64,000 nucleotides of DNA from Nemertoderma westbladi (Eukaryota; Animalia; Xenacoelomorpha), in assembly GCA_032718475.1 (NCBI GenBank), contig JAUCBJ010000486.1, forward strand, positions 1-64,000, in the 5' to 3' direction. Position 1 is the stretch's first letter. Every line of letters begins with the position of its first letter. This document shows positions 17,525 through 42,348 of this stretch, piece by piece. The notes below the pieces were generated by a model. That model had not been told where the DNA came from and did not search any database. It saw only the letters and a program-made list of their open reading frames with translations. Made by a program: the position numbers and the translations under genes.

Positions 17525-18902
17525 TGTTGCCGTTATTCCCGACACCATGGGGGGAAACGCCGATGCTGGAGGCGGAACTTTTCAGACCACGGAATCCCGG
17601 CCAGTCACCGGATATTGGTAGTGGAGAAGGAATACGTTCTTAAATGCAAGATAGCGGTTGAGAAAAGTTTCATTGGTTGGCTATAATCTTTAATGTAACT
17701 TCCCTACATTTGAACCTTGATTGAGAATAAGTTGGGCTTCCCCAAACCAATATACACCAAATATTCACAATAATATAACACGACAATATAAATCCCTACA
17801 GTACATTATTTAATTACCCACTGTTCGCTCAGATTTTAACCTAACTAATGTTCCCCAATTTTCCCTCGGTCCTAGTCTCTGTACCATAGTGTCGGTGTCG
17901 GTCGACCCTGTTGCGTGTCCGTCCCACCCTTCCCGAACCCCGAAGGGATCGGTCATCAGGAAAGCGGTACGGCTTGGCTAAGGGTCGGTCCAGTCGGTAG
18001 ACCCGGTTGCGTGTCCGTCCCACCCTTCCCGAACCCCAAAGGGATCGGTCATCAGGAAATCGGTACGGCTTGGCTAGGGGTCTGTCGGTTCATCGCAGGG
18101 ACCCAACCACCTAGGCTTTCCGAGTCCTTATTCAGGCTCATAGTCGCTTCAGCAGCCGAGAAGCTGCTCCGAACAGTCGGTAGGCCAGTAGAGTCCAGTC
18201 CTTTGTCTTTCGACCCCGTTGCGTGTCCGTCCCACCCTTCCTGAACCCCAAAGGGATCGGTCATCAGGAAAGCGGTATGGCTTGGCAAGGGGTCTGTCAG
18301 CCCGTCGTGAGCCCCAACGGTTGGTGGTTTTCCGAGTCCTTATTCAGGCTCGTACTAACGCCGGTCGTGGGACCCACTCCAGGAAGGCAGTCCTCGTCGA
18401 ACCCTTCCTCCGTTAGTCGGTCGACCCGTTCGCGTGTCCGTCCCACCCTTCCCAAACCCCAAAGGGATCGGTCATCAGGAAAGCAGTACGGCTTGGCTAG
18501 GGGTCTGTCGTCGGTTCCCGTCGCAAATCCCTGACACAAGCAGCAGACTTTCCGAGTCCTTATTCAGGCTCGTAATAACTGCTGTTGGCCAGGGACCGCT
18601 AAGGGCAGTCCTTGTCCTTTAGACCTAGCGAGTTACCAAATCCACCTCTACAGGCAGCAGGAAGTTGGCTAGGCCTAATAGTAATCAGGCAAACCTGAAT
18701 ACTGCTTAACTTTGCCTCCCACCCCTGGTCCTTAAATACATGAAATGAGTCCCGTACCCCGTAAGTCGCCCCAATATTCGCCCATAAATCGCCCCCAGTC
18801 CATCCCATGTTCCCGCACCCAGTAGTGATATCGGAATATTCATTTAAAATAAATCCAAAAAATATTCAACTCGCGTTAAGAAAAGTTGAAATACCGCGAA
18901 CA
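17525..18902 (-). repeat. 3' LTR of element A (1378 bp, 4 internal repeat units)
   Basis: Near-identical to 40865-42348; preceded on the minus strand by a PPT. Confidence 0.95.
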
Positions 18903-18911
18903 GTCCCCCCC
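18903..18911 (-). promoter_or_regulatory. Polypurine tract of element A
   Basis: Minus strand reads GGGGGGGAC immediately before the TG of the 3' LTR. Confidence 0.8.
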
Positions 18912-19082
18912 AATGACCTTCGTGAGGTCTATCGGTAGATCGAGTTTGCGTAGGTCATTTCCCATATAAAAAACCCTTTTTTTTAATATTGCATAGTCTT
19001 GATTAATTTGGCCTAGAGTTAGTTTATGTAAATATATAAAAATAAATGTTCGATATAAATGCCCCTGGAATATCCTGGTCCT

Positions 19083-20013
19083 TTATTTCTTACTCTGATA
19101 CGCCTTTCTCCTCTTCGCCCGTCTACTTTCATCGATAGCCAGTGCTGGTAGGGGAGCATCAACATCCATCGTGAGCAACGTTTCAGCTTGTCTCCTGGCG
19201 GCTCTTCCTTTCGATGGTAGCGGGATCATATCCGTTCGTCTTTCTAACTCGGTGGTGTGTGCCTCTAGGAACCACTTTCCGTCACCGAACTCTTCCTTAT
19301 ATGAATATAAACGCCTAAGGATCTCGAATGGGCCGAATAATCCAGCGCTTAGTAACAGATCCACGTAATGGAATGGTAGCGTCGCTGTCGTATGGAGGCG
19401 TTCCGGGAACGAAAAGTACCCGCACGCCATCTCTTGTGCGATATTTTGAGCGCTTCTCCGCACTTTGGTCTTTACGTGGTTGTTTGCGTAGGTTTCGAAC
19501 ATAACCATATTTCCCATAGCGGTAACATCCTTCGTAGGACATTTTATATTACAGCGGGGGCTAGCGGAATGTCCACGGAAACCGCAAGTTGTGCAGAGGT
19601 TATAAAGGATAGGACAAACTGAAACATCGTGGCCCGATGTCGCGCAATAGGGACAATAAAGTATCCCGAGGAGCTGGAGGCACGAATCGGTAACCCGATT
19701 TCTTCTACCGTGTGAGCACTGCTCCGAACCGCAGTCTCCGCATACCTCCAGTTGCATCTCCCGGCCGAAGAATATCGGAATCGGGACGCCAGCGTAATAC
19801 TCGAGTCGTCGGTCGCTTGGGAATATTTGCCATGGCCGGTAGCCCGCGAAAAGCTGGGCTTTGGCGTAGTATGTTCTCGTTTCGATATCCTTCTTTATAT
19901 CCTGCCGGACACATCTCTGGTGACCGTTTCTGGCGGTGGATCCATTCGGTCTGCTCGGCGTACCATCGGGTAAGTCGCATATGGTCCTGTGGAACGGAAG
20001 GGGTTGTTGCCAC
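19083..20013 (-). pseudogene. Accessory 3' ORF of element A, Cys/His zinc-knuckle protein (frameshifted ORFs 19705-20013 and 19083-19757)
   Basis: Motifs CGDCGSEQCSH, CPYCATSGHDVSVC and CTTCGFRGHSASPRC lie between integrase and the PPT. Confidence 0.65.
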
Positions 20014-20065
20014 AGCTGGTCGGCGAAGAGGTGCCGGGCTTTCGACGGAGGGATTCCGAGGAGAT

Positions 20066-23000
20066 CTACGGGAGTCGGAGCGGCACTGGGACCCTTTTTA
20101 ACCTGTATCGCTGAATATGGGTTTTGGGTCTTCCGAGTAGATGGTTAGGAGTGAGAGGCTCCAGATCTGTGGGGTCATCGCGGATAGGTACGATGGGCCG
20201 GTTGTTTAGGGTAGCCGTGATCTCGCAGAATGTTGTGCGGAGGGTGTCGTGGGTTACCCGGGTGTCTCCTAATGCGACGCGCATGGATCGTTTTACCAAG
20301 TCGATGAGCTTCTCCCATACCCCACTCGTATGGGGTGCTAAGGGTGTTTGGAAGTGCCACTGTATATGGTGTTCCCTCCAGACTTGGGATGCGGTGTCTT
20401 CGGTGAACCATCCTTCGATCGCCTCTCTGAGTTCTCTTTCTCCTCCCACGAAGTTTGTACCATTATCGGAGTACATATGACGAGATGTTCCATTGTTCGC
20501 CACGAACCGACGCAGGGTGTTGATAAATGCGTGTTGCGTAAGGTTCACCACGATGTCTAGGTAGATTGCCCTAGACCTAAGGCATGTAAAGATGGCTCCC
20601 CAGCATTTGATGTTGGATCGTCGCTCGATGACTGTGAATGGTCCGGAACAGTCTACTCCGGTTACGTAGAACGGTGGGAATCGGACTGTAGATATGTGGC
20701 TGGTAAGTCGGCCATCCTTTGTGTGAGTGGTGGCGCTAGATATCTTCTGCAGGGAAAACAACGTTTTAACACTTTCCGGATTAGTTGCTGGATGTGGGTG
20801 ATCCAATATCTTTGCCGTATATTAGCCATGATCCAGTTCTGTCCAGCGTGATGGTTTTCCTCGTAACTCTGTTGGATTAATAGCTTGGCTAGTGTTGACG
20901 TTCAGGGCAGAAGCGCTGGGTATTTGACTTCGTATTCAACCGGGGCGTTTGCCATCCGGGTATTCAGTCGAATCAGTCCGTCTTCTCCCATGATTGGTCT
21001 CAATTGGTAGACTGGACTGTCCGGTTTCAAGGTCTTGCCCGCACTGAGTTGTTCCCACTCATCGGGGAAACTTTCTTTCTGGACATATCTAATAATACAC
21101 TTCTCCGCAATAATGAGTTCTTGTATACTTCATCGGACTATCGGTTTGTTGTTTTTCCACTGCAGGAAGTTGCAAAGGGTTAAGATGTGGTGGATGAGAC
21201 GTCTCATTGAGGAGGTTCGCTCTATCAATAGTTGTAAAGACGCTGCTGGTTGCGTGATAGTCGCAATATTATAGTGCCTGCCCGAGTCCTTTGCAGGCTC
21301 GGTCAGACAACTATAGATCTCCACTGTGGCGCTTCTATGGACTTTACGGATCTCCTTGTCGTCTTCGGAGTATTTTCCGCTATCGAGTTCAGGATCGAAT
21401 CGGGTACTCCAGGTTAGTTGTGGTTGCTGTAGGAATTCCGGGCCGGTGAGCCAGAGTTTACTTTTACCGAGCTGTCGTGGGGTGGCGCCTCTGCTTGATA
21501 AGTCCGCTGGATTTTCTTTCCCGTTCACATGGTGCCACTGTTCTCGGCCGGTGCACTGTTTTATCTCCGTGGCTCGGTTCGCTACAAACGTGGTGTGACG
21601 CCGTGATGGTGAGTGGAGGTAGTAGAGAACAATACTCGAATTGACCCAGAAATGTTGCGATTCGATGGGGATTCGTAGGTTCCGCATGACCATGTGGTTC
21701 TGTCTCACTGCCCAAACTGCGGCCTGTATCTCGAGTCTCGGTATCGTTGCTACGAATTCCCCGGATACTGTCTTAGCCTTGGAAAATAAGAAGCTTGTAT
21801 CGCCGTTTCCATCCTGACTTAGTCTTCTTAGGAAAGTGACTACGCCGATTCCGGTATTTGAAGCATCCGAGAAAGTATGGAGCTGGAATATATCGGTGGG
21901 TAGTTTATTGAGGAAGAACGGTCGAGGGATCCGCATAAGATGTAGATGTTCGAGTTGTTCCGTCCACTTTCTCCATTTGACACTGAGGTGTGGGGGGAGT
22001 TCTTCGTCCCATCCCAGTCATTCTATCCACATTTCCTTGATCAAGTTCATTCCGGCCAATGTTACTGGGGATATGAAGTTTAGTGGATCGAATATAGCAC
22101 TCTTTATGGACAGACATCCCATTTTTGTCATGGGCTTGGGTAGGGGGTTATATTTGAAGATGAATTCATCCAATTCTATGTCCCATTCAATGCCGAGTAC
22201 ACGGTGATCCACATCCTCGGAATACATTTTATTGTTGTCCAGTCTGATTTCCTCCGGAAACTTTTCCATAAGTTTCTTGTCGTGGGATCTGAACTTTACG
22301 AGAGGGAAACCTCCTTTCTTTAAACATTCTACCATCCCCATCGCCAGCTGATATGCCTCGTCAACATTATCGGCACCGGCGCATCCGTCGTCCACGTAGA
22401 AGCATCGTCGGATGGTTTCTATGACTGTCGGAGGGAACTCGTTTTCGCACATAGTCGCTGTTTTCTTCAGCATGTTACTACATGCTACCGGCGAGTCCTT
22501 AGCGCCGAAGATCCTGACAATCATGTGCATTACGTCCACATCCTTCAATGTGAGTTGACATATCTCCTGTGGAGTTAATGTTTTATCCGTCCATAATATA
22601 CGCAGACAGTCTGAGTCTCTTGGTAGCGTTCGGACCTGGTGAAACATCGCTTTGATGTCGCATGTGAATGCTATCCGGTTTTCCCTGAACCTGATCAACA
22701 CGCCGATAAGTGTACTGTATATGTTAGGCCCTGTATAAAGTTGGCTGTTCAGGGATTCGCCTTGATACATAGCAGCAGCATCATTTACCGCCCTTCCGGG
22801 CTTCTACCACATAGTGGGTTGGGAGATAATACGTCCGTCTACCCCCTTGCAGTTCATTCCGGGGTACCATTTCCGCCAATCCATCTTCTAGATATCCTTT
22901 GATTACATTATTGTATTTCTCCTTTATCTCGGGTTGGTCATTCAACTGGCGTAGGATTCCTTTGAGCCACCTAAGGGCCATGTTGGCATTATTCGCCATC

Positions 23001-23931
23001 GGTTTATCTGGGTCTTTCCACAGCATGGGTGAACACCAATGTCCGTCTTTGAACGTGGCCTGATCAAGGATGTCAATACAGTATTGATCTTCCTCAGACG
23101 GGTTCTCGTCCTTTTCTGCAAACTCTTGTGTCTCTAGGTTAAAATATTTGGTCATTTCCTGCTGGGTTTTTTCCGTCTCTAGGAATAAATCCTCGTCCAG
23201 GTCTGTTGCTGAACAATAACCCATGGATGTTGCACTCTCTTTAATCTGACATTTAGGGAGATATGTATAGGTATCTGTAGTCTCCTCTTTGATGCCGCAG
23301 AGTGTCCATCCCATGATCGTGCGTTCTGCGTAAAAGCCATCGTCCGGCTTTACAGATCGGGCGACGTCTCCGGTGGGTATGTGTAATTCCGGTGTGTCGA
23401 GTCCGATCAATAGGGTGATTCGGTTCACGTCCAATGGTGGACATCGTAGGTCTACATCTTCCCGGTCTAACTGTATGAGGGGTGCGTATTCAGCTGATTG
23501 TCGGAACCTCACTCGGAGATCGGTGTGTACCAAGGCGTTCTTGATCGTCAGCTTGACCGTCTTGTAACCCTTCATGACTCCTTCCATCTGGAGCTGCACC
23601 TCCCCAGACTCTACTTCTCTATGGTGGGTGATAGTTTGTATGGGCCGTTTGCAAGGTTCGTAGTCTAGGCCGAGTTGTTCGAGGAAATCCTGGTCGATGA
23701 TGGTTCCATCCGACCCATTGTCAAGGAACGCGAGCATTGTCAAGGATTTCCCAACCCCTTGAATTCTTACTGGGATTACTTTGGCGAAGACCATGTAACG
23801 GCGATTTATAAGGTTGATCGTAGCCGAGATATTTGTCACTTGTGATACATCGGTGGAGGTCTTAAATGGATTGGTTTCCCTCCGTTGAATCGTCCGGGTT
23901 TCTTTAAAGACGTGGTTCGTTTCTCCTCTTC
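20066..23931 (-). pseudogene. pol: pol of element A (PR-RT-RNase H-IN) broken by frameshifts and stops
   Basis: PR AFLDNGSDGT; RT CDIKAMFHQV and FYVDD; Pao RNase H LHTFSDAS..TIPRLE..NPADLSSRG; IN HHCC (NHHAG..CFPC, alternate frame ~20745-20860) and core GVDCSGP..SDNGTNF..WEKL. Confidence 0.95.
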
Positions 23932-25154
23932 TGTAAAAGCTTTTGCTGAATTGTCCGGTTATTTTTCCTTATTTTTCCCGTAAAATACTCTGTAGTTGGT
24001 TTACCAGGCATAAAAAGGCCGTGTCCTTGCTGTACTGGTGTTTTAGCGGACATAAAAGCAATTTCTTCTGTATTTGTACTTTAGAGGACATAATCCGTAA
24101 TTCCGTGACGTAAAAGCTCGATACTCTTGAAAACAGTATCGCTACCATGACGACGGCTAGCAGCTGATATTGCCACGTCGACGTTTCTTTGTTTCTCTGT
24201 TCTCTCGTTGTTCAGGTTGACCAATCAGAGCGTTTGTTATCTCTGTGTTGGAGGTATATACAGAAACTCAGTAGTTCAGTGTTATGTTTTTGACCAGAGC
24301 CTAAGAACCGGCTTTGGCACCTCCGTGTTTTCAGTTTTTAGTCTTACACTAGTAGGTTTAATTATAAAGGGCATATATCCTTTAACTGACATACCGATCA
24401 AACTCATGGAATCACTGCTAACTGATCATACATACTGACTGCTGAAACATTGCAAACTCATAACAATCAGTGTTCAGTTGTTGTTTTATACTGCTATTTG
24501 TTGTCGGTTATTCATTATATTTGTTGATGAATTATTATATTGGAATAACGAGAAATAACCCCGACACCCAATATTCTTGATATACCGAAGGTAAGAGAGA
24601 AAGGTTACAGATAAACGATTGTGACTTATGTTAAAGTGGTTTGAAGTGAATCTAATGTTATTTGATAGACCCTACATGAGTCAGTCTGTGTTCCTTTTAT
24701 ATGTGACTAAAATCAGTGAAGATTGGCAGATTAGTGTGCAGTATTGTGCAGCATTGTGTATGAGTGAGTCTGTTAAAGAAGCAATTCCTAAAGAATGCGC
24801 CATATATGTGAATTATAATTAAGCCATATCGTTGTGAGTAGTTTAAGTCATAACTCTGTTTATATAGATAAAGCGCCACGTCCTAAAGGAACTGTTAATA
24901 TTACCGAAGGTGAATAATATTGTCAGAGATTATATAATACTGTCAGTCGAATAATACATTAGGCTTACATAGCAATAAAATTAAACCGTCGAACCCAATC
25001 TCCCGGGAATCTCCAGCGGGTGAATGGTCGCGCACGGATTGGTTTCGACTAGTGTAGTGAATCAAATACTTGTCATAGACTAAAAACAGATTTAATATCT
25101 AGAAGACATCTTAATTTGGTGGGTTAAACTGCCAAAGGTCTGAAAGCGCGAACA
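23932..25154 (+). repeat. 5' LTR of element B
   Basis: Direct repeat of 36894-38116. CCAAT ~24221, TATATA ~24255, TCAGT Inr-like ~24276, AATAAA 24974-24979. Confidence 0.97.
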
Positions 25155-25166
25155 TTAAAGGATATA
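25155..25166 (+). promoter_or_regulatory. Non-tRNA primer-binding site of B, complementary to its own LTR
   Basis: TTAAAGGATATA abuts the LTR CA and is the exact reverse complement of TATATCCTTTAA at 24374-24385. There is no TGG start. Confidence 0.7.
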
Positions 25167-25429
25167 GCTTCTTTATTGCAGTAAGCAATAAAGTCGAAAG
25201 TACCGGTCGACCGGTAACCAGTAGGCCTGACTGCCTGATCATCCGGACCGGTACCTACAGCAGTATTATTCGATTTTGATTGTTATATACCAGTAGGCCT
25301 TAATAATTAATCAGGGACTGCAGCCCTGGTTTTTTATTGAGATTTTTACTTATTTCTGTCAAGTTTTATTTGTTTGTAGGCCAGTATTGAACAGAAGGCG
25401 TGTAAACCTGATCAGATTGTACAGACAAT

Positions 25430-28055: not shown

Positions 28056-28736
28056 TTAAGTAACTTAGGTAAATTAGTATTATTTGTTTTAGTGTCCTGT
28101 ACGTAACACTTCACTGAAAGCGCACCGCTTTGTGTAGTGATTACTCCCCAGAAATAATAACATTTATTTCAAACATTGACAAAACCCATTAAAAACGGGT
28201 ATATATATATTATAAATCAAATCTAACGATTTATAAATCGTAGGCCTACCATACAACCATTAGGCCTCAATATCAGTTGGATTACTGCTCAAATAACGGT
28301 AATAAAGTAAGTAAAGTAACCAAGTAACCCTAAAATTCAGAAATTCAATTATTTAAAATAATTGATATACCGGTATTCTCGATAGGCCTATTATCTTTAT
28401 TTCTATAAATTTTGGCTGAAATTATACCAGTACTTGTAATTAATTCTAGTCCAGAATTATATATACTACAAACTGTAAGTAGTATACCGGTATTCCGATA
28501 GGCCTATTATATGTTTATATATATTTGTGCTAAAATTATACCGGTATTCTGTGATAAACCTAGTCTGTAATAATAGTTATATATACTATAAGCATACCGG
28601 TATTCTAATATATTATATATCACTCTACACTGAGTAGCAGTACCGGTAATTAATTACTAGGCTAGTAGGTAATACTGAGTTACTAGACTTACTCAGACTG
28701 TAATACAGCAGTAGACATTCAACGGTATACATAGTC

Positions 28737-31700
28737 ATGTCTGATACTAAGCAGAACCTGTCAGACAGTTTATTAGATGTAACTATCTGCGACTCAGATA
28801 GAGACGTACCACTGTCTGGTCGTAAATCCAGTTCACCTCCCACTGTGAGGAAAGTCATCCCTCCAGTAGTAATAACAGAACCTAGGCTGGTCCAACATCG
28901 TAGGTCTATCATAGGCACCCGAGCTCAGGTCAAGCGGGACCAACAAGCGGCGGAACAGCAACAACCCGCTAGTCAAGAACTTATTCCTCAGCGGCCCAGC
29001 AGCTCCAGTAGTGAGGATACTGTAGAGCTGACACCCGAGAGCGGAGCAGAGATGACGGATGCGGTTTATACGGATCCCCTTCTCATCCTTCCTGCAGCCG
29101 TGCTCGCTGGGTTATTGATCGCGGTGGAAGAACACCAGATCGATTGGGCGAGAAGTCAACGGTCAACTAGAGATAGCTACGCGGGCTACACTAGTGAACA
29201 ACTGAAGTCTATTGTCGAGTCGCAATGGAACTTCCCCGGACCCGGACTCCCGTTTGATTTATCAGAAGCTGCCTGGGAAGACATACACCGGATGGGAGTA
29301 GCCAAGGAAACCATCGATCCAGCTGTGTGGAAGAGGTCCGCAGCCGGATACACACAGGGATTCTTCAGCTCTATGGAGCGAATAGAAAAGCAACTTTTTC
29401 AACAACCTCAAGGACCTCAAAAGCAGGGATCGCTGCTTTATCAAGTTAGAGAAAGAGTTCTGCGGATTAGGCTAATCTTATCCGCCTTTGAGGAGGCTTC
29501 TAAAAGAAAACAAGACACGTCGTTGCAAGTTGCCGTAAAGACTTGGTTTCAACGGGTGAGTCGCCAGGTTCAAGGAGCAGCTCAGTGGAAAGCTCAGTTG
29601 GAGGAGCGCTCAACCCATGGAGAATCAACAGACGCTACTTTTTCCCAAGTGGAAAGTGAAGCGACGGCAGAGAAACCGCATAAGAGGGATGCCATTGACA
29701 TCTATCTGTCAGACTATCAGCGTTTCGTAGGTGATGAAGAGTTGCGGAGAAGACTAGATGGGCTTAGCTCTAATAGTGAAGGAGCCCAGCGTGTGTTGGA
29801 TGCAATTGATGTGGATAGGTTAGCGGCGAACCAAGCTAAATTCGATGAACAACTCCGCATCGCTAGAGAACAAGAAGAACAAGTAAGAAAAAAACGTATA
29901 GAAGACAGAAAGATAGCAGCAGTGGCAGAGGCGGAAAGAAAAGCGACCTTGGCAGAAGCAGCGGCAGAGGCAAAAGCGGCAGCAGCAGAAGCAGAGGCAA
30001 AGGCAACAAAAGCAGCAGCAGAAGCAGAGGCAAAGGCAACAAAAGCAGCAGCAGAAGCAGAGGCAACAGCGGCAGCAGCAGAAGCAGAGGCAAAGGCAAC
30101 AGCGGCAGCAGCAGAAGCAAAGGCAGAGGCAAAAGCGGCAGCGGCAGAGATAAAAGCGGCAGCGGTGGCGGAAGCAGAACGGAGAGCATCTGAAGAGGCA
30201 ACCCAACTAGAGTTGGAAAATCTACAAGAGAGGCAAGACAACTTCAATAAACAGTTAACAGCTAGTAATATGCAGATGATGAATCGATCTACTCCCAAAA
30301 GACAGGGATATACATCATCTGAGGAAGGCGATACCACCGATACTGAAGGCAAGGGAAATAGATCTCGTCCAAGTAGACGTAAAAGAACATTCCACCGTCA
30401 GAAATTGCCTGATTTGCCTCCAGCTGTTAGAAGGCAACTAAATAACACTAACTTAGGTAGTACTGAGCCCACAGACCAAATAATTAAAATAGAAAGACTC
30501 CCTACTATAGTAGATGAGCCTGAAATAATTAGGCCTGTTCTTGAAATCACCCCTACGGTAATAGATACACCTGTGCTCCCTGAAGCTACCTATAAATTCC
30601 CTCTACATAGCACTAAGCTACCTGTGCCCCGTAGAACTGCCCGAGAGACAGTTCAGGTCCTGGACCCCGAGCAAAATATTCCGAATTTGTCGCCCGTTGT
30701 CCCTTGTCTGCCCGCTACGACGTTGGCGGATCCCGTTTCGGCGGTTGATTGGGTAGACGAGAGACGGCGGGGGATGGATATTCTCCTCGGAGAGATGAAG
30801 GAGAATCGGATACGCTCCTCCCAACAGGTCCGAGAGTTGGAAGGGACTGTCCAACATTTAAAGGGAACAGTGAGGGAAAGCAAGTTAGAGTTGCAAGAAG
30901 TGCAGCAAAATATCGCGCTAGAGCGCGATAAATTAGTAAATTTACAAAAGGGTATACCACCACCCCCTGTAACAATGTGTCAACCCGTTAGGTCTGAAGT
31001 ATCTCATGCGCAAGGTGTGGAGCCTACACGCATTTATACTGCTAGCGAAGTAGAAACTCCTATAGTGAACCCTATTAAGGGTAATTATAGACCTGTTTGT
31101 AATGATATTCCCTATGGAACTGATCATAATCCGAGGAATTTATATACCGATAACTCGATATTAAATAGCACGATGGCCCAAGAAAGTTTTACGCGTCAAA
31201 TGGCTAGAACCGAAGCCCGGCAAGCGGTAAAGGTTGGAGAGATCGTCAAGTTCAATGGAGATGAGATGAAATGGTTACCTTTTAATGAATATTACAAAGA
31301 TAACATACAGAACTCTGTACTATCTAATGGAGAAAAACTTAGATACCTCATCGAGTGCTTGGAAGGATCTCCCAAGTTAATGGCGTTAAGGTTTATTGGA
31401 CATCCAGACGGATTAAGACAAGTTTGGGATACACTAAACATCAGGTATGGTAATAGGAATAACATAGCTGGGTATTTGTATGCAAAGTTGGTAGCGCCCC
31501 GAAAGTTTATTAGCAGCGGGATTATAGAGTTTTCCGATGAAATTCAGGAGATCTGCAGACAATTAGATTGGCTAGGTAAGTCTCATGAGTATCAGAGTGC
31601 TATGGTTATTAGAGCAGTGGCTTCTACTTTGCCGAAGGGTGGAGTAGGTACACGCTGGGATAAGAAAGTGTTATATATGATGGAACAACAACAACGAGAC

Positions 31701-33824
31701 CCTACCATGGCTGATCTCATGTCATTCTTAGATAGAGAAGTGAAATTACAGCTCCTAAGGCAGTCCAGAGAGAAGACATTGGAAAACAAGGTAAGTGAGA
31801 AACCCGTTTCTAGGAGAAGGGTAACACCAGTATGTTATACCGACGACGGTGAAAGCCAAACTTCTCAAGGAGAGGACAGCGGGAAAGACACTGACAGATC
31901 TTATTATGTCAATAAATTGCCTAAAGATCAGGTAAGTAAATCCGAGTCTCGACCCAATGACAGAAGGGAACTGGTACAAAAAACCCCTCCTACGTCTCCT
32001 AAAAGAATTCAGGTGAGAAAGCCCGAGGAAAGAACAAGTGTGCACCACACAGCACATGTTAAAGTAAGTAACATCAAGCCCAAATGTGTGCTGTGCGACG
32101 GGCCCCACCGTTTAAATGCGTGTGATAAATTCCTGAGGAAATCACTCGAGGATAGACGTGAAGTCATGTGGGATAAGCGGTTGTGTTATAATTGCCTCAG
32201 ACGAGGACACCAACGGCGAACCTGTAACTCCGACGCAAGGTGTGCAAAGTGCGGCGCAAAACATCATATCTTGTTGCACACGGAATTCGAACGAAACAGC
32301 CCGAGTCAGGTAAGTGAGTCCGAACTACATGTCCAATTCAGTGATGTGAACGACACTGATCAATCTGAGATGGAAGGATTCTATACGGACGAGTTCTCCG
32401 ACCAAAACGAATCCTGTTACCTAATAAACACCACCGCAGTGTATCGAGCACTCGTGTATGAGAAAGACACAGACAGCGACCTTACCTTAACTACTTCCGA
32501 TCAACAACCATCTTGGAAAGCGCCAACTTCCAATATAGGAATCCGAGAATTTCCTGTAGTCCAGTTACGGGTCTACGGACCTCAGAAGAGCTATATAGTG
32601 AACGCCCTCCTGGACTCCGGTAGCACAGGAACATTCATCGATAAAGAACTAGCCGAAGTCATCTTTGCTGGACAACCCAAGTTCCGAACCATGCTAAACA
32701 TGTCAGGGATCATGCAGGTTTGGAATTCTACTGTAGCTGCCGACTATTATATAGGTGAGTTGTCCACCCCCCAGGACGAACTAGGAGAACATAGCATCAG
32801 GTCAGTGAAAATGGTGGCTATAAAGAACTTCGCTACTACTCAAGCAGACCTTTATAATTGGGACGAGGATGAGAGCATCCAACATCTTAACATACCTCGA
32901 TTACAGACTGATTATCCTGGAGTGCAAATACTCATCGGCCAAAACGCGCATGAGGCGCTGGAGACATTAGAGAAACGGCCTGCTCAACCGCAGCCACTAC
33001 AGACCTATGCGGTAAGAACTAGAGTAGGTTGGTACCTTACTGGACCTTCCGGTAGAACGCTCAGGGAAAGACTGCTTCAAGATCGCGTCTGCCAGATGAG
33101 TGAATGGGAAGATGATACTAGTGAGGGAGACGACCCAACTGAGGGAACACCACACTCCTCAGATAATGACAATCTTAGCTCCAATGTAGATCAATGGAGA
33201 TATTGCCCCAAGAAGTTTAATCCAACGGACATCGCTTCCAGAGGAGCAACTCCTCAAGAACTGACAGATACTATAGACCGGTTAGGTGAACCCGACTTCC
33301 TGAGTAAGGAGAATGAATGGCCTCCCCATCTTACTCCGACTGAGATTAGACCAGCCAAGGGAGCGGAGAAAGTCGAACCTGAAACCCGGACGGGTGGATC
33401 GGAGTTATTTGAACCCGGGATAGATCTGTCGGTATTACATGTTACCAGGGACGACGCCGTGGATCTGGGCCTCCCCTCCGCGAGTGGATCCTTCATGAAG
33501 ATCAGAGAGAGCGATTGGAGCTCTGGAACATCAGACGTCTCGCAGGGACTCTCACCTCTCCTGCAGAGAGCGACGGACCACTATAGCTCCTGGAATCAGC
33601 TTTGTGACGCCGTCATATACTTTGAGCGATGTTTCTATCGTCACTATTCCAGGACGAAGAGGAAACCTGGAATTGTATTCAGGATGCAGCGACTCAATCA
33701 CCCAGTCGGTCGTTTGTGTTTATCGGAAGGGAATGGAGGACTCTCCGGAAACTGTGGAAGGCAAGATTCTCTTCCCACGACCACCTCCCTAATCCTTCAA
33801 ACATCTAGGGACTCCATAACGTAA
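28737..33824 (+). CDS. gag: BEL/Pao Gag-protease polyprotein (1695 aa) fused in frame to an RNase H C-terminal remnant; RT and IN absent
   Basis: DUF1759-like IVKFNGDEMKWLPF..EKLRYL; triple Cys motif CVLCDGPH / CYNCLRRGHQRRTC / CAKCGAKHHILLH; PR ALLDSGSTGT; then QWRYCPKKFNPTDIASRG. No YxDD motif. Confidence 0.92.
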   Translation: MSDTKQNLSDSLLDVTICDSDRDVPLSGRKSSSPPTVRKVIPPVVITEPRLVQHRRSIIGTRAQVKRDQQAAEQQQPASQELIPQRPSSSSSEDTVELTPESGAEMTDAVYTDPLLILPAAVLAGLLIAVEEHQIDWARSQRSTRDSYAGYTSEQLKSIVESQWNFPGPGLPFDLSEAAWEDIHRMGVAKETIDPAVWKRSAAGYTQGFFSSMERIEKQLFQQPQGPQKQGSLLYQVRERVLRIRLILSAFEEASKRKQDTSLQVAVKTWFQRVSRQVQGAAQWKAQLEERSTHGESTDATFSQVESEATAEKPHKRDAIDIYLSDYQRFVGDEELRRRLDGLSSNSEGAQRVLDAIDVDRLAANQAKFDEQLRIAREQEEQVRKKRIEDRKIAAVAEAERKATLAEAAAEAKAAAAEAEAKATKAAAEAEAKATKAAAEAEATAAAAEAEAKATAAAAEAKAEAKAAAAEIKAAAVAEAERRASEEATQLELENLQERQDNFNKQLTASNMQMMNRSTPKRQGYTSSEEGDTTDTEGKGNRSRPSRRKRTFHRQKLPDLPPAVRRQLNNTNLGSTEPTDQIIKIERLPTIVDEPEIIRPVLEITPTVIDTPVLPEATYKFPLHSTKLPVPRRTARETVQVLDPEQNIPNLSPVVPCLPATTLADPVSAVDWVDERRRGMDILLGEMKENRIRSSQQVRELEGTVQHLKGTVRESKLELQEVQQNIALERDKLVNLQKGIPPPPVTMCQPVRSEVSHAQGVEPTRIYTASEVETPIVNPIKGNYRPVCNDIPYGTDHNPRNLYTDNSILNSTMAQESFTRQMARTEARQAVKVGEIVKFNGDEMKWLPFNEYYKDNIQNSVLSNGEKLRYLIECLEGSPKLMALRFIGHPDGLRQVWDTLNIRYGNRNNIAGYLYAKLVAPRKFISSGIIEFSDEIQEICRQLDWLGKSHEYQSAMVIRAVASTLPKGGVGTRWDKKVLYMMEQQQRDPTMADLMSFLDREVKLQLLRQSREKTLENKVSEKPVSRRRVTPVCYTDDGESQTSQGEDSGKDTDRSYYVNKLPKDQVSKSESRPNDRRELVQKTPPTSPKRIQVRKPEERTSVHHTAHVKVSNIKPKCVLCDGPHRLNACDKFLRKSLEDRREVMWDKRLCYNCLRRGHQRRTCNSDARCAKCGAKHHILLHTEFERNSPSQVSESELHVQFSDVNDTDQSEMEGFYTDEFSDQNESCYLINTTAVYRALVYEKDTDSDLTLTTSDQQPSWKAPTSNIGIREFPVVQLRVYGPQKSYIVNALLDSGSTGTFIDKELAEVIFAGQPKFRTMLNMSGIMQVWNSTVAADYYIGELSTPQDELGEHSIRSVKMVAIKNFATTQADLYNWDEDESIQHLNIPRLQTDYPGVQILIGQNAHEALETLEKRPAQPQPLQTYAVRTRVGWYLTGPSGRTLRERLLQDRVCQMSEWEDDTSEGDDPTEGTPHSSDNDNLSSNVDQWRYCPKKFNPTDIASRGATPQELTDTIDRLGEPDFLSKENEWPPHLTPTEIRPAKGAEKVEPETRTGGSELFEPGIDLSVLHVTRDDAVDLGLPSASGSFMKIRESDWSSGTSDVSQGLSPLLQRATDHYSSWNQLCDAVIYFERCFYRHYSRTKRKPGIVFRMQRLNHPVGRLCLSEGNGGLSGNCGRQDSLPTTTSLILQTSRDSIT

Positions 33825-36800
33825 CAACATATGGAGTGGGTGTGTGACTCTATTATTTTATATTATTTTATTATTTTTATATTTATGTATGTATTACTAT
33901 GTAATTCTATTATAATCGTTTTCTTTAATTTTATTCAGTAGAATGTTATTTTAGCGATTATTTTGTAGAATAGTGCAATATATATTCGCGTTTATTACTT
34001 AATTACGTATATATTATATTTAGTGCGACGGCGAAGAAATAATTATTTTTCTCTTTCCTTACTGTCCGTATTATATTATAAATACGTGACTACAGTAAGA
34101 TGAAATGTCCGTACTTATTAAAGTACAATAAAGCCACTACTATATTTAAGTATTATTGGTAGGCAGAGTATTAGGAATGCAAAGTTCAGATCCTCGTGTC
34201 TCGGCTAAACCAAGCTCTGGGTAGACCTTGGAAACGACTTGCCTCTTCACACTGACATTGCTTCGTGCGATATTGCTCTCATACCGTATATTAAATAATA
34301 CATATAGTAGCGTGATGTCCCTTTAACAGTAGCGTATAACGCAAAATAAATCTGTTAAACCCTTTGACCATCTGTAATTCTAGTCGATTAAGATATCGCG
34401 GCACCCACCGATATACTTGAAAGACAAATTCTAGAATCAGTGGTTAACGTCCCCAGACAAGTTCTGGAATAAATCGGTGCCCATCTCAAATATTAATTAA
34501 TTAATATTTGCAAAATCTAATAAATCAAAATCTGTAAAATTCAGATCCTTCAATAATTCTAGTCAATTAAGATATCGTAGTATTTACCGATATTCTTAAG
34601 AAGACAATTGTCATAGAATTAAGGATCTTGTGTCCCTAGACATGTTCTAGAATCAAAACATGTCCATTTAATTATCAAATAATAAAATTTCAGGGAATAA
34701 ATTTAAATTCATGTCTTTTAATGAATTTAATAAATTGCCATTTTTACGCAATTTATAAAGTTCCCAAAATTCCATTAATTAATAGATCAAGGGAGCGGAG
34801 ATTTATCTTATCATGCGTATGAGTGTGTGAAAGTCTCCCAAACATAGTCAATAGCCGATAAAATTCATAAAGTCATGTATAAAACAGAACATTGACTATT
34901 AAAGAATTACTATTAAATAACATCCCAGATCTGTATGCATTGGAATCACCCTAATTCTACCGCTAGCTTTGCATAATGTCACCATAGCAACAACCACGCT
35001 AGAATTAGAATTGAGTTAAAAGAACAATAGAAAACTTGTCCCATTGAATAGCATAGGGAATAAATAGCGCACTACTAGTATCCAAGGATACATAATAATA
35101 CAGTGACATTCTGGAAGGCATTGACTAACGGACAAATGGCCCGAATGTGTGTAATTTGTGACAAGTTGTGTGTGTGGTATTTGTGAGTTTATAGGTGAAT
35201 GTTACTGCTAAGGTGTGTTTACAGTAGCCAGTCGCAATCGTAAAGTAACCTAACTCTCCAAGGAAAACCTGAAGTACATCTAAGCCTTTGGGACGGACAG
35301 TCGAGTGACTTGTGCCGGTTGTCGTTGTCGTTGTGCGGCTACGTCGTTGGCGAAAGTACAGCGGCGACGACACATCGGCGCTGAGGATCTCGTACTGTCC
35401 GGGGGTTAATTGGAGTAGGCAGCGACGCTCGCTAGCCTGAATATAAACTCATTATAATATGGATAAACTCATATAGCAGATATGGTTGAGTTGATAGAAG
35501 ATGATCTTGGTATCGGGGAGCGATATACTCTACTTTTGCAAGCGTTTGTTGATAGCTTAATACGCGGTGACGTTAGTCTAACTGCTGCGGAGGACGATGG
35601 TCGTTATATCGAACCGACAATGTCCCAAGTGCAGCTCTCGCGAGAGTTGGACTATAGAAATTTCGCTGCTCGCTACACGCATTGTAATGGTATGTATATG
35701 GACTTCTTAACCATTGACCATTCTATCGATTTACACAATACGGACTATGTCGACTATATATCCTGCCCAGCGGAGTCTGAACCATAAACTGAAATTCGAA
35801 TGCGAAAATTCTATTCGAAATCGGCTCGAAAGAAAAGACATTAAAGAAACAAATAAACGCGGTAACTCCAACATATATTTGGAATTCTTGATAGAATCAT
35901 TGTAACTACAAATAAATATCATCCGCGTTTCCCCTACCAGACGTGCGTCTTGGGTATTATTACGGTAAATGCCCTAGACCTAGCCAATAAACGGAAAGAC
36001 ATAAACATCCACGGAAACGTTGTGTTAAATACAGTTGTGTTCGTTATATTTACTGGAGTTTCGAGCGAAACTTGTTTGACGTATCACCTATGCTCACTCG
36101 GCTCTAACGATCCTAGAGTAAACCTACGATCAGAGTCCCGGAATACTCGGTCAAACCTCCTCATTCCTTAGTTGGACCTCAGACCTGCGATCCTGGTGGT
36201 GTCGCGGATCCTCGCGGACGGTATTCACTGTTCAAAGATCTAGTGCTACTCTAACAATTAATCGGTAACACTCCGACAGTGATTTCTAGCTAGCCGCCCA
36301 TCTTACCTAGCCGGATTGTGACGCGGACACCTAATATCACTATCCAACCGTATGGTCGTCCCCGTTTAACGCGATACAACCCCTCATCAAGGTGAAGGAG
36401 AGCTTTGTACGAAACGAGTTAAACGCTATTCTATAAAGATCAAAAGAGAAACCTGCGTTTGTTCAGATAAACGTAAGTTATAACAGTAAGTCCAGTCGAT
36501 AAACGAATTGGCCTTATCTCAATTCGATTGGGAAATCCAGAATCTCTAAGAAGTTATTGAACTTGGACGATCCTATTCTCTGCGAGAGTTTTTGGATGAA
36601 CGTATCCAGCTACGAGCGGAGGAAAATCAGCTCGAGGAGAAGCATATCGAAACGGCAGATACCTCGACCATAAACCTACACCTTCTGATGCAATCATATT
36701 GCACCCTTCACCCAGGAGTTATGGCCCTCCTAGTAAAGTGGCTCCCCCCAAAGAGAAAAAGACTCTTGCTAGCCTCAAAAAACTGCGTAAACGCCGTCTG

Positions 36801-36885
36801 CGTAAGAAAGACTAACTGTTTAGAGTATCTTTATATTTTAGAAACTGTGATTTTGTATATTTTATAGACTTAAATCCCATTTTCT

Positions 36886-36893
36886 GGGAGTGG
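36886..36893 (+). promoter_or_regulatory. Polypurine tract of element B
   Basis: GGGAGTGG directly before the TG of the 3' LTR. Confidence 0.75.
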
Positions 36894-38116
36894 TGTAAAA
36901 GCTTTTGCTGAATTGTCCGGTTATTTTTCCTTATTTTTCCCGTAAAATACTCTGTAGTTGGTTTACCAGGCATAAAAAGGCCGTGTCCTTGCTGTACTGG
37001 TGTTTTAGCGGACATAAAAGCTATTTCTTCTGTATTTGTACTTTAGAGGACATAATCCGTAATTCCGTGACGTAAAAGCTCGATACTCTTGAAAACAGTG
37101 TCGCTACCATGACGACGGCTAGCAGCTGATATTGACACGTCGACGTTTCTTTGTTTCTCTGTTCTCTCGTTGTTCAGGTTGACCAATCAGAGCGTTTGTT
37201 ATCTCTGTGTTGGAGGTATATACAGAAACTCAGTAGTTCAGTGTTATGTTTTTGACCAGAGCCTAAGAACCGGCTTTGGCACCTCCGTGTTTTCAGTTTT
37301 TAGTCTTACACTAGTAGGTTTAATTATAAAGGGCATATATCCTTTAACTGACATACCGATCAAACTCATGGAATCACTGCTAACTGATCATACATACTGA
37401 CTGCTGAAACATTGCAAACTCATAACAATCAGTGTTCAGTTGTTGTTTTATACTGCTATTTGTTGTCGGTTATTCATTATATTTGTTGATGAATTATTAT
37501 ATTGGAATAACGAGAAATAACCCCGACACCCAATATTCTTGATATACCGAAGGTAAGAGAGAAAGGTTACAGATAAACGATTGTGACTTATGTTAAAGTG
37601 GTTTGAAGTGAATCTAATGTTATTTGATAGACCCTACATGAGTCAGTCTGTGTTCCTTTTATATGTGACTAAAATCAGTGAAGATTGGCAGATTAGTGTG
37701 CAGTATTGTGCAGCATTGTGTATGAGTGAGTCTGTTAAAGAAGCAATTCCTAAAGAATGCGCCATATATGTGAATTATAATTAAGCCATATCGTTGTGAG
37801 TAGTTTAAGTCATAACTCTGTTTATATAGATAAAGCGCCACGTCCTAAAGGAACTGTTAATATTACCGAAGGTGAATAATATTGTCAGAGATTATATAAT
37901 ACTGTCAGTCGAATAATACATTAGGCTTACATAGCAATAAAATTAAACCGTCGAACCCAATCTCCCGGGAATCCCCAGCGGGTGAATGGTCGCGCACGGA
38001 TTGGTTTCGACTAGTGTAGTGAATCAAATACTTGTCATAGACTAAAAACAGATTTAATATCTAGAAGACATCTTAATTTGGTGGGTTAAACTGCCAAAGG
38101 TCTGAAAGCGCGAACA
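36894..38116 (+). repeat. 3' LTR of element B
   Basis: Direct repeat of 23932-25154, followed by the TSD TCTTC. Confidence 0.97.
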
Positions 38117-40431
38117 TCTTCGTTTGGCTTCGATCCGAAAGGGGAGGGTGGTAAAGTCTAAAGTTCGCGGGGATGTGGAGGAGTGTGTGATGACGTAGGT
38201 CATTAAGACCGCGCAGCACGATCTTTGGTCGCAATCCCGAACATAGTGACCCATGTTCCGAGACACCGGAAGCATCCTCGGTGTTTCATTATCGCCTCGA
38301 ATCGTGGGACGAGTTCAGCAAACTGGAACTTTCTGCAGAATTCCACCTTATGTTTCTCTCCGCAGAAAAGACATAGAAGGGAGGTTGTGGTGCCTTCCCT
38401 TTCGGGTGCCCAATTCGCTAGATAACACGCCCATTCCTCGGCTGATGTCAGTTCCTCGTAGTCCTCGTCGTCGGAATCCTCGGCCATGGTGATGGCCATC
38501 GTACTCACCGGAAGGGGATGGAATCTCGGTTTCGGAGTGGGTGTCCTGCTCCTGGAGTTGTTCTCTATTCCGTCTAACTTGGAGAGACTTTGTTTGGAGA
38601 ACATTGAGTCATTTAAGGCTTCGGAGATATCATCTAGGAATGCCGACATTTCGAGGAAACTGGGATCTCGATCTGGGTGTCTGAGTCGGAGATCTACGCA
38701 TTTATACGCCCACTTGCTTTGTAGCCATCCGGGGAACTTTCGGGCAATCTGTCGGAGGTTTAGAATGTTGTTTACTTGTTCCTCCTTATTTAATGGTTTT
38801 AGAGTGTAGTAGGCATCTTTCATGGAATCCGAGAATTCCTGGATATTCTGTGGGTCCCCTAGGGATCCCGCGTCCTGTATCAGTTTCTCGAGAGTTTTAT
38901 TAATTATAGTCCCGATATTTCCGTATCTTTTGTCTAGAGTTTTCCATGCGTCATAGTATGCTTCATGAGATCCTCCCTCGAAACATTTAATGATTCGACG
39001 TGGTTTGTCGCCCAGGTATTGGGATAAATATACCAGTTTTTGTGTGTCGGTTATATCCGTTGACCCAATCTGAGCGAAGAACCATTTCTTAGGTAATCGA
39101 CGGGGTCTCCTTCGAAGGTGCGGATCTCCATCTTGGGCATGGCCAGGCGGTTTTCCAATGCCCGGATAATGCCGACGTCATCTGAACTGGAATGACTAGG
39201 AGGGTTATAGTTATTAACACTCTCTCCCATGCACGATGGATCAATGAGAGGTGGAGTTTTAATGATGACGCGGTTACGGATTTGTGGTGTGGATGTAAAC
39301 GGATTGTTGGATCGAGGGGTGGCGTCCCGTTCCGAGTCCTTTTCAGGCTCGTACTTGAGAACGCCCGGTGCCGTGGGGTTGGATGGGAAATAAGGTTCCT
39401 CATTCTTAAGCGTAACCGGTGGGGGATGGAATACCGGTGCTTGTGCCGTTAACGTAGACGATATGGTTGGCGGGAACTCGGGTTTCGGAGGTTTCGCCGC
39501 CGGTGGCGTAAATGACTTCTCTAATTCCGGGACCGGGATTGGTTCATAGTTCTGTTCTATACCCCTTTCCCAGTCCTCGTATAGTTGAAGATCCCGTTCT
39601 ATGAGTGCGGCTTCGTAGTCCGCGAGTTTCGCAATATCCGCATTCTTTTTATGGATGAGAATCACTTGGGCCTCGGCATGTTGTTTACACATTTCTGCCT
39701 CTAGTTTACGTTGTTCAGCCTCTCGTTCACGTTGTTCGGCCTGTTGTTCGGCCTCTCGTTTACGTTGTTCGGCCTGTTGTTTGGCCTCGTTTTTGCATTT
39801 CAGCTGCCAATACATCCTGTTCGATCTGCAGTTGAACATATTCGTCTTCCATTCGAGCTTTTTGGGCCAATGCCCTCTGTTCTCGTAGCTGATCTCGGAG
39901 TGGCTGACCCCCTTGAGAACTGCGCGCTGAACCGGATATCTCGCTCCTAGCGCTGGAGTGTTAGTGCCTCGAGGACCCCGTTCTCTTTCGATGAATTGCT
40001 GTCCTGGTGCTGGAGGTCCGCACCGATTCTGCGTCTGTCCTTTCAGTTCTCTTATAGTACTGTTCCTCGTAGCCTCTTACAAGGCTGAGGGTCCTCCGAT
40101 GTTGCTTCCGGAACTCGTCCAAATGTGCGATGTGTTCTTCGAGTTTGGGGTAGTTTACCTGATCCGTTGCGGGAATAAGTTCTTGATATGATTTTATCAT
40201 CCTCTCATATCGTTGTAAGATACTTCGGATATTCTGTAGCTGAGTCTGTATCTCGTTGAGGGGGGTTTCGACTCCCCTTAGTTGTTTCTCTATACGTTGG
40301 TATGCTCGAGTCACTCCGCCTTTGAGAGCTCCCAGTCGACGACCCATGTTCTTCACATTCGGCACCTCGTCGGCTCCCGAGTCTGTGTGGGGGTCCATCT
40401 CATCGGTATCAGAGACGTTATTCGTCGTCAT
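38117..40431 (-). pseudogene. gag: gag of element A, frameshifted
   Basis: Consecutive ORF pieces 39961-40431, 39051-39839 and 38203-38823 with LAMPKMEIRTFEGDPVDY (DUF1759-like), CLFCGEKH and CFRCLG knuckles. Confidence 0.9.
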
Positions 40432-40619
40432 TCTAGCGCCTCGTTGATAGCTAGATATGCAATGTCATAAAATAGTTCTTCGTAGGTCTCGTATTCAGCT
40501 TGGACTACCCGAACGGTAATCCTGAATCGTCCGACGTTCGTTCCTTGTACTTCAACTTCGACGTGCCAGATTCCTGGCTCAACTTGGATTATATCAATGG
40601 GTGTGATCAATACTTCCAT
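40428..40619 (-). CDS. 63-aa upstream ORF of element A whose stop overlaps the gag start (AUGA)
   Basis: ATG in GGAATGG context; the TGA at 40430-40428 overlaps the gag ATG at 40431-40429. Confidence 0.45.
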   Translation of the reverse strand: MEVLITPIDIIQVEPGIWHVEVEVQGTNVGRFRITVRVVQAEYETYEELFYDIAYLAINEALE

Positions 40620-40850
40620 TCCCTGTTAACGACTCTCTATATGTGATCTGCCGACTACGAGTTTATTAGTTCGAGTTTGTCGATTAATTAAACCACGGCT
40701 TTGTCTTAAATCAAATACCAGAGTTTCCTCGTAGTAGGTGCTGGGTAAGCACGGAGAGAGTTTGAAGAGTATTGTAGGATTCCCAACTTCCACCAGTTGA
40801 AGTTGGCCGCGTCTTATTCTCAATTTTGACAGCCTGTCAAAATTGAATCC

Positions 40851-40862
40851 CTTATTCTCAAT
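40851..40862 (-). promoter_or_regulatory. Non-tRNA primer-binding site of A, complementary to its own LTR
   Basis: Minus strand reads ..TAACA AA ATTGAGAATAAG. The 12-mer is the exact complement of CTTATTCTCAAT in the LTR (plus coordinates 41060-41071). Confidence 0.7.
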
Positions 40863-40864
40863 TT

Positions 40865-42348
40865 TGTTACCGTTATTCCCGACACCATGGGGGAAAACGC
40901 CGATGCTGGAGGCGGAACTTTTCAGACCACGGAATCCTGGCCAGTCACCGGATATTGGTAGTGGAGAAGGAATACGTTCTTAAATGCAAGATTGCGGTTG
41001 AGAAAAGTTTCATTGGTTGGATATAATCTTTAATGTAACTTCCCTACAGTTGAACCTTGATTGAGAATAAGTTGGGCTTCCCCAAACCAATATACACCAA
41101 ATATTCACAATAATATAACACGACAATATAAATCCCTACAGTACATTATTTAATTACCCACTGTTCGCTCAGATTTTAACCTAACTAATGTTCCCCAATT
41201 TTCCCTCGGTCCTAGTCTCGGTACCGTAGTGTCGGTGTCGGTCGACCCTGTTGCGTGTCCGTCCCACCCTTCCCGAACCCCGAAGGGATCGGTCATCAGG
41301 AAAGCGGTACGGCTTGGCTAAGGGTCGGTCCAGTCGGTAGACCCGGTTGCGTGTCCGTCCCACCCTTCCCGAACCCCGAAGGGATCGGTCATCAGGAAAG
41401 CAGTACAGCTTGGCTAGGGGTCTGTCATGTCGGTGGACCCGTTTGCGTGTCCGTCCCACCCTTCCCAAACCCCGAAGGGATCGGTCATCAGGAAAGTGGT
41501 ACGGCTTGGCTAGGGGTCCGTCGGTTCATCGCAGGGACCCAACCACCTAGGCTTTCCGAGTCCTTATTCAGGCTCGTAGTCGCTTCGGCAGCCGAGAAGC
41601 TGCTCCGAACAGTCGGTAGGCCAGTAGAGTCCAGTCCTTTGTCTTTCGACCCCGTTGCGTGTCCTCCCACCCTTCCCGAACCCCGAAGGGATCGGTCATC
41701 AGGAAAGCGGTACGGCTTGGCAAGGGGTCTGTCAGCCCGTTGTGAGCCCCAACGGTTGGTGGTTTTCCGAGTCCTTATTCAGGCTCGTACTAACGCCGGT
41801 CGTGGGACCCACTCCAGGAAGGCAGTCCTCGTCGAACCCTTCCTCCATTAGTCGGTCGACCCGTTCGTGTGTCCGTCCCACCCTTCCCGAACCCCGAAGG
41901 GATCGGTCATCAGGAAAGCGGTACGGCTTGGCTAGGGGTCTGTCGTCGGTTCCCGTCACAAATCCCTGACACAAGCAGCAGACTTTCCGAGTCCTTATTC
42001 AGGCTCGTAATAACTGCTGTTGGCCAGGGACCGCTAAGGGCAGTCCTTGTCCTTTAGACCTAACGAGTTACCAAATCCACCTCTACAGGCAGCAGGAAGC
42101 TGGCTAGGCCTAATAGTAATCAGGCAAACCTGAATACTGCTTAACTTTGCCTCCCACCCCTGGCCCTTAAATACATGAAATGAGTCCCGTAGTAAGTCGC
42201 CCCAATATTCGCCCATAAATCGCCCCCAGTCCATTGAATGTGCCCAAATCCCATGTTCCCGCACCCAGTAGTGATATCGGAATATTCATTTAAAATAAAT
42301 CCAAAAAATATTCAACTCGCGTTAAGAAGAGTTGAAATACCGCGAACA
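40865..42348 (-). repeat. 5' LTR of element A (1484 bp, 5 internal repeat units)
   Basis: Direct repeat of 17525-18902 with one extra 96-bp unit. ATTAAA on the minus strand at 41029-41034. Confidence 0.95.

Follow-up and report, generated by a model that had tools for sequence, protein, structure and literature searches.

Two nested BEL/Pao retrotransposons of Nemertoderma westbladi with primer-binding sites complementary to their own long terminal repeats: a candidate self-priming system

The Belpaoviridae profile of the ICTV (PMC8742986), the international committee for virus taxonomy, describes BEL/Pao elements as tRNA-primed, with an 18-nt primer-binding site (PBS) whose sequence complements tRNA-Arg or tRNA-Gly, long terminal repeats (LTRs) of 0.2-1.2 kb and genomes of 4.2-10 kb, and it calls BEL/Pao replication poorly understood. 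Priming by an element's own RNA has been described for Tf1/sushi elements in the available parts of PMC7175516, PMC4600332 and bioRxiv 10.1101/2022.12.06.519325, the first of which places the RNase H cut of Tf1 between bases 11 and 12, and it is predicted, in the available part of PMC6317226, for the Tcn1 chromoviruses and for the TAR (Houba, Osr-1) Ty1/copia elements of plants; the accessible portion of PMC6934838 lists only the fungal self-priming elements. On the BEL/Pao side, the main text of a survey of the group (PMC3118150) makes no mention of primer, PBS, tRNA or intron, the accessible portions of PMC3601003 and PMC8220671 add nothing on self-priming, and neither BEL/Pao self-priming nor a splice-built primer was found in the literature searched, with Repbase, GyDB and subscription journals lying outside that search. 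Here we describe two BEL/Pao elements, A and B, in a 64,000-nt stretch of Nemertoderma westbladi contig JAUCBJ010000486.1 (the window), each of which carries behind its 5′ LTR a 12-mer exactly complementary to a 12-mer within that same LTR.

Pairing between the PBS and the own LTR in elements A and B

Element B is nested inside A, between A gag and A pol, and the boundaries of both elements come from self-comparison and boundary reading. The pairing involves the following features:

42348-17525, minus strand: element A, a BEL/Pao LTR element
40865..42348, minus strand: 5′ LTR of A, 1484 nt, TG..CA
17525..18902, minus strand: 3′ LTR of A, 1378 nt
40851..40862, minus strand: PBS-position 12-mer of A, 2 nt after the LTR-terminal CA
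41060..41071, minus strand: LTR 12-mer of A, exact complement of the A PBS; position 41060, which lies 195 nt from the LTR end, is the candidate 3′ end of the primer
23932-38116, plus strand: element B, a BEL/Pao LTR element
23932..25154, plus strand: 5′ LTR of B, 1223 nt
36894..38116, plus strand: 3′ LTR of B, 1223 nt, with a polypurine tract (PPT) immediately upstream
25155..25166, plus strand: PBS-position 12-mer of B, flush with the LTR-terminal CA
24374..24385, plus strand: LTR 12-mer of B, exact reverse complement of the B PBS, 769 nt from the LTR end

An earlier sequence-only reading of this DNA had proposed a common layout of LTR-terminal CA, 0-2 nt and an exact own-LTR 12-mer, and this layout is present in both elements, with a 0-nt gap in B and a 2-nt gap in A. 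As that reading also held, neither 5′ LTR is followed by the TGG that starts a tRNA-type PBS, the two PBS regions beginning AAATTG and TTAAAG, and both instead agree with the Tf1 type, a PBS of ~11 nt complementary to the own 5′ LTR, here over 12 bp in each element. The two LTRs, which had been judged not alignable by eye, indeed give no alignment (best E 2.7), the Gags share 27.5% identity across 138 residues, and cross-pairing between A and B reaches 7 nt at most. Among the contigs of run X1 (assembled, possibly from DNA), which show B to be a multi-copy family, one spans the B PBS at 25155-25166 without a listed change. Between 17400 and 42500 no Rfam family was matched at E<=1, and tRNA genes were found neither in the window nor in 20 loci.

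An alternative that bears directly on these matches is chance, or a functionless local inversion or duplication left by template switching. Outside the LTRs, 16 (B) and 18 (A) of ~122,000 positions hold a 12-mer that is the complement of a segment in the element's LTR, or 1.3-1.5e-4 per position, which with the few offsets allowed gives a chance of <1e-3 per element and upholds the earlier estimate of about 1e-3 or less; random 40-mers reach 12 nt in 1/400 cases for A and 1/400 for B. Events of the template-switching kind do occur here, since A carries a 16-nt duplication of its LTR end and PBS beside an inverted copy, but the pairing partners lie 195 and 769 nt apart. The relatives presented below, in which the match recurs, depends on splice junctions and shows compensatory changes, largely refute this explanation, which we regard as highly improbable.

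The sequence-only reading had included a spacer and a hairpin behind the PBS in the shared module, and both structures are indeed present:

25171..25193, plus strand: perfect 9-bp hairpin of B, after the 4-nt spacer GCTT
40846-40820, minus strand: 12-bp hairpin of A, after the 4-nt spacer GGAT
40824-40813, minus strand: second copy of the A PBS 12-mer, from the 16-nt duplication

They are unusual, as perfect stems of at least 9 bp start at 86/127,900 positions, but the hairpin of A is a by-product of the duplication of LTR end and PBS (40866-40851 = 40828-40813). As a conserved module, spacer and hairpin were rejected: no perfect stem of at least 6 bp starts 8-29 nt after the LTR in any of 23 relatives, so this part of the earlier claim falls away.

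Recurrence, splicing and covariation among relatives

BEL/Pao relatives were taken from a profile scan of metagenome contigs as the best 80 of 540 loci, and 21 of these loci, with LTR ends read by eye, were scored together with A and B. Excluded from the scored set were copies nearly identical to others, loci whose LTR end could not be read, and also L036 and L040, in which the contig cuts the junction or the primer end. The own PBS:LTR pairing spans 10-14 nt in 21/23 rows (19/21 loci, A and B), and 14 of the 506 cross-pairs, mostly between close kin, reach at least 10 nt. The two misses are L002, which has a TGG-type, tRNA-like PBS and pairs for 5 nt, and the aged L027, with 7 nt. At least 20 distinct PBS sequences are represented, each matching its own LTR or junction, their offsets from the LTR end are only 0-4 nt in relatives, and the pairing cores are unbroken Watson-Crick runs, with G-U pairs and bulges in the flanking helices. 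An extension of the duplex past a bulge is visible by eye in many rows and reaches p<0.05 in 2/21 (Fisher p 0.044 over non-independent rows), which is a hint.

For 17 of the 19 passing loci the pairing exists solely across a GT..AG junction within the LTR, and the junction-spanning matches use canonical GT..AG sites, while the pairing is contiguous, as in A and B, in L069 and L045 (2/19). In A and B themselves, pairing built by a splice junction was tried and rejected, the best being 0 and 7 nt, with no junction that improves either match. Locus L075 has one LTR (1-214) without and another (6769-7265) with a predicted 117-nt GT-AG intron; the record either stems from a spliced RNA or captures intron loss, in the form of a DNA copy that has no intron.

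Where the LTR pair alone fixed the LTR end, 9/11 loci pass. A held-out set from a second scan (17 loci, L081-L097) was scored blind by a fixed script; in seven of these loci the BEL match is flanked by two full LTRs. L096 was left unscored because of a decayed LTR end, and 5/6 full elements that could be scored show an 11-nt pairing, with nulls of 0-2 of 300. The passing elements are the contiguous L083 and the spliced L084, L085, L092 and L094, and L081 reaches 8 nt only (null 17 of 300). In the sister families L092 and L094, an exon end of TAA vs CAC is accompanied by a PBS of TTA vs GTG, that is, by two compensated pairs. The sequence-only reading had proposed to look for PBS-own-LTR complementarity and covariation in BEL/Pao relatives, and complementarity was found in the metagenome and bacterial-bin loci, covariation in two of the latter; its central claim of a self-complementary, tRNA-independent PBS is supported by 19/21 loci, 5/6 held-out elements and the L092/L094 covariation. 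The pairing in A and B is far beyond chance and is part of a broad pattern across relatives, which is expressed in its position, polarity, exactness, recurrence with different letters and covariation.

Among L081-L097, full BEL/Pao elements sit in contigs that had been assigned to bacterial genome bins and most likely represent animal host DNA within those bins; no relatives were found in viral contigs. L085 also contains, at 3374-8093, a second nested LTR pair with a PBS that lacks TGG and any self match beyond 4-6 nt.

In trees of RT-RNase H sequences (RT, reverse transcriptase) with 107, 44 and 22 rows, all unrooted quick searches, A is a long branch, unplaced with respect to the named clades (Pao, Dan, Sinbad, Flow, Tas, BEL, Suzu), that lies nearest to the spliced-type L004, among TGG-type lineages, and the contiguous L069, L045 and L083 are scattered among spliced types with four changes needed, which is consistent with repeated intron loss or gain. 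On these trees, self-complementarity may or may not have had a single origin.

Transcript geometry and the source of the primer

The primer of A and B is very probably LTR-derived when routes in cis and in trans are taken together, and of the particular routes we think it probable that both elements prime minus-strand DNA from their own RNA, freed in cis by an RNase H cut at the duplex edge. The element RNA would fold on the PBS:LTR pairing, with the LTR segment internal to the transcript (in B perhaps ~100 nt from the cap), the retrotransposon RNase H would cleave it where the duplex ends on the 3′ side, leaving a 3′-OH at 24385 (B) or 41060 (A), and this cut end would prime minus-strand DNA synthesis, with the R region left up to the poly(A) site (~50 nt in A, ~600 nt in B) serving strand transfer. 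Plus-strand synthesis would copy the first 11-14 bases of the primer, so that the PBS would be rewritten from the primer in every cycle, much as tRNA renews the PBS of retroviruses, and this would account for the covariation as well as for the perfect Watson-Crick pairing. For most relatives, the segment that serves as primer would arise only after splicing of the LTR intron, A and B being the contiguous form, and in the spliced types the cut would fall just downstream of the junction, in which case the spliced part of the 5′ LTR would stay uncopied, leaving the 3′ LTR as the source from which the intron is passed on. Because splice-built junctions need an upstream exon, they lend indirect support to an internal primer, and the LTR segment ends in AC in 19/19 passing loci of the eye-read set, as is expected of an end recognised by an enzyme. 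Self-priming of this kind predicts RNA ends at single-base precision. For a wider scenario we see an even chance: a large branch of marine-invertebrate BEL/Pao elements may have dropped the tRNA primer in favour of a capped ~100-nt 5′ fragment of their own RNA, with splicing of an LTR intron by the host assembling the pairing end in most families and A and B being intron-less through repeated intron loss.

The motifs that bear on the transcript, those for promoters being motif matches only, are the following:

24221..24260, plus strand: favoured promoter candidate of B, made up of CCAAT (24221) and TATATA (24255), 131 nt upstream of where the primer ends
24363..24368, plus strand: rival TATAAA of B, from which transcripts would begin just downstream of the 12-mer
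41174..41199, minus strand: first promoter candidate of A, with a reverse CCAAT at 41199 and a TATA-like motif at 41180, 121 nt from the primer end
42167..42225, minus strand: second promoter candidate of A, with GC boxes, a reverse CCAAT at 42206 and TATTTAA at 42173, 1114 nt from the primer end
24974..24985, plus strand: poly(A) signals AATAAA/ATTAAA of B, 181/175 nt from the LTR end
41029..41034, minus strand: poly(A)-like signal ATTAAA of A, 170 nt from the LTR end

The poly(A) hexamers lie downstream of the 12-mer in both elements, as had been read from the letters. The A candidates lie 121 and 1114 nt upstream, so the A segment would be internal under either. Among 19 relatives, TATA-like motifs lie 129-143 nt upstream in 4, elsewhere in 3 and nowhere in 12, and a spacing matched in just 4/19 gives weak support to the B promoter geometry. 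The suggestion that the 12-mer is internal to the transcript is thus favoured indirectly, by the spliced relatives and the CCAAT/TATA pair of B, and opposed in B by the downstream TATAAA. The LTR of B also has, all downstream of the 12-mer (24591-24972), a strong donor (24591) together with acceptor-like splice sites, one at 24867 and others near 24972, and the X1 contigs show no such joint.

Several observations weigh against priming in cis, or against its extension from relatives to A and B. Transcription from TATAAA at 24363 would leave the B 12-mer outside the transcript, and the B duplex has a predicted probability near 0 in 6/8 folding windows (0.4 and 1.0 in the other two). Side duplexes of the kind found in the Tf1 pretzel reach p<0.05 in 1/19 rows by a test for exact matches only, the sole row being B (9 nt with 24774-24782, p 0.034), with none in A. 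The LTR segment ends AT in A and AA (then C) in B, vs AC in all 19 passing relatives. As the 21 loci were chosen by eye, some of them via the match itself, that set is not blind. The X1 contigs show no GT-AG joint, though 24340-24460 is not covered and the gap is uninformative. A grouping of A with L043/L083/L092/L094, which have a look-alike primer context, was rejected (p-AU 0.009), and with A a long unplaced branch and B without RT, the transfer from relatives to A and B is by analogy.

Some of these points fit an LTR-derived primer that acts in trans, in which a short LTR transcript, or the product of a host nuclease such as one of a small-RNA pathway, anneals to the PBS without an RNase H cut in cis. 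Such a primer explains the same complementarity and covariation, it suits the 769-nt-range duplex of B, poorly predicted in cis, and an internal primer needs no pretzel, of which none was found. We consider it unlikely, because the fixed AC end and the 0-4-nt PBS offsets point to a precise, duplex-guided cut, and because A does fold in cis, its duplex having a predicted probability of 0.4-1.0 in 12/12 windows (overall z -1.6), with no pairing predicted between the LTR and the second PBS copy (P <= 0.01); the third acidic motif of RNase H, readable in 58/65 relatives, points the same way without being specific. In a further alternative, the duplex is a structural switch in packaging, translation or PBS shielding, while priming at the site or close to it falls to a host RNA, for instance a tRNA half. 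Priming by tRNA halves is known in Ty1/copia lineages (PMC6317226, in its available part), and the ICTV profile has the Belpaoviridae as tRNA-primed, but at least 20 different PBSs match their own LTR or junction and not one common RNA, the cores are unbroken Watson-Crick runs beside flanking helices with G-U pairs and bulges, and the TGG-type control L002 has no self match, all of which makes a host primer distinctly improbable.

Under priming from own RNA, the enzymes would be supplied to A and B in trans, because B lacks RT and the pol of A is broken. The remaining anatomy is as follows:

38203..40464, minus strand: gag of A (DUF1759), spread over three frames
20135..23968, minus strand: pol of A, with protease, RT, Pao RNase H and integrase in BEL/Pao order, interrupted by stops and frameshifts
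18903-18911, minus strand: PPT of A
42349-42353 and 17520-17524: target-site duplication (TSD) of A, GATTA (5 bp)
28704..33824, plus strand: gag-protease frame of B, 1706 aa, non-autonomous, without RT, RNase H and integrase

Element A measures ~10.6 kb without its insert and B 14.2 kb; the LTR pairs are identical at 1346/1373 aligned bases in A and 1219/1223 in B, whose TSD is TCTTC (5 bp). Pfam recognises DUF1759 in A and B, and protease, a weak RT and Peptidase_A17 in A, and tblastn with three full-length relatives gives the order gag-protease-RT-RNase H-integrase (gag-PR-RT-RH-IN) for A, while in B it finds no more than gag, protease and a short stretch that lies behind RNase H. The TG..CA LTR pair, TSD and PPT of BEL/Pao elements are present, and the domain features (BEL-type Gag, Pao RNase H and PR-RT-RH-IN order) are found in A, B being assigned by DUF1759 and protease only. 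Without RT, RNase H and integrase in B, and with the pol of A broken, neither element is mobile alone.

Surrounding features and comparison with known systems

The U3 of A (41237-41944; 17897-18509) contains GC-rich tandem repeats with unit lengths of 96 and ~211 nt and a hairpin that follows CUGAUGA and is capped by UUCG; the copy number of the units varies between the two LTRs of A and in an X1 contig; a hammerhead reading of these repeats was dropped, as Rfam gave no match. Behind the integrase, a frame at 19086-20144 (minus strand) has zinc-knuckle-like cysteines (Pfam zf-CCHC_4 E 0.079, below the cut-off); another frame, of 63 aa (40431-40619, minus strand), precedes gag and matches no family. 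The 3.5-kb leader of B (25198-28700) has a 16-nt palindrome at 25201-25216, a duplicated block of 279-288 nt at 25427-25992 and repeated ACCGGT motifs near 28370-28650, which are possible dimerisation or packaging signals. The B Gag bears an ~840-aa N-terminal extension (28704-31250) with an Ala/Glu-rich repeat, and the 3-kb 3′ region of B holds several frames of 70-106 aa (35467-36864) with no Pfam match above the cut-off. Elsewhere in the window are three apparently intron-less host genes, for Mo25 (52245-53270, minus strand), which has no listed match above 70% identity across all phyla listed, EXOSC1 (57458-58072, plus strand) and a PAXIP1-associated protein (16041-16880, plus strand), as well as a GDSL-like hydrolase frame (8040-8822, minus strand), a 32-nt satellite of 116 copies (10693-14356), a 33-nt minisatellite (192-756) and two inverted-repeat elements resembling miniature inverted-repeat transposable elements (50953-51784 and 48667-49087).

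If BEL/Pao elements do prime from their own RNA, all three LTR superfamilies would have arrived at self-priming, here by a new route, with an internal primer that is splice-built in most relatives. It would explain the many BEL/Pao elements without an annotated PBS and give a rule for fixing LTR ends, and it may free these elements from the supply of tRNA and from silencing by tRNA 3′ fragments.

Compared with the ICTV description of the Belpaoviridae and the genus Semotivirus, A and B share the LTRs, 5-bp TSD, PPT and DUF1759, and A also the gag-PR-RT-RH-IN order and Pao RNase H, but they differ in having no tRNA-type PBS, in LTRs of 1.2-1.5 kb and in sizes of ~10.6 kb (A) and 14.2 kb (B). 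The TAR copia elements and Tcn1 were predicted by a test that A and B also pass, complementarity of at least 10 nt located 0-5 nt after the 5′ LTR; these belong to other superfamilies and kingdoms, and the available part of their description (PMC6317226) mentions no splice-built primer. Tf1/Tf2, Tj1 and the Tf1/sushi group, as far as the accessible portions of their literature describe them, resemble A and B in lacking a tRNA PBS and in having an 11-12-nt PBS complementary to the own 5′ LTR, and an RNase H cut is proposed there as the source of the primer. The Tf1/sushi elements are Ty3/gypsy chromoviruses, whereas A and B carry BEL/Pao and not chromovirus domains, and most BEL/Pao relatives differ further in that their pairing segment is built by splicing. 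In Tf1, according to the same partial sources, the 11 nt that open the mRNA act as the primer and sit in a pretzel of three duplexes, whereas in A, B and the relatives the segment appears to be internal, judging from promoter motifs and spliced relatives, and the pretzel was not found, with no side-duplex match in A and the single one of 9 nt in B. The mode proposed for A and B would thus work like Tf1 self-priming, in elements that are not members of the Tf1 group.

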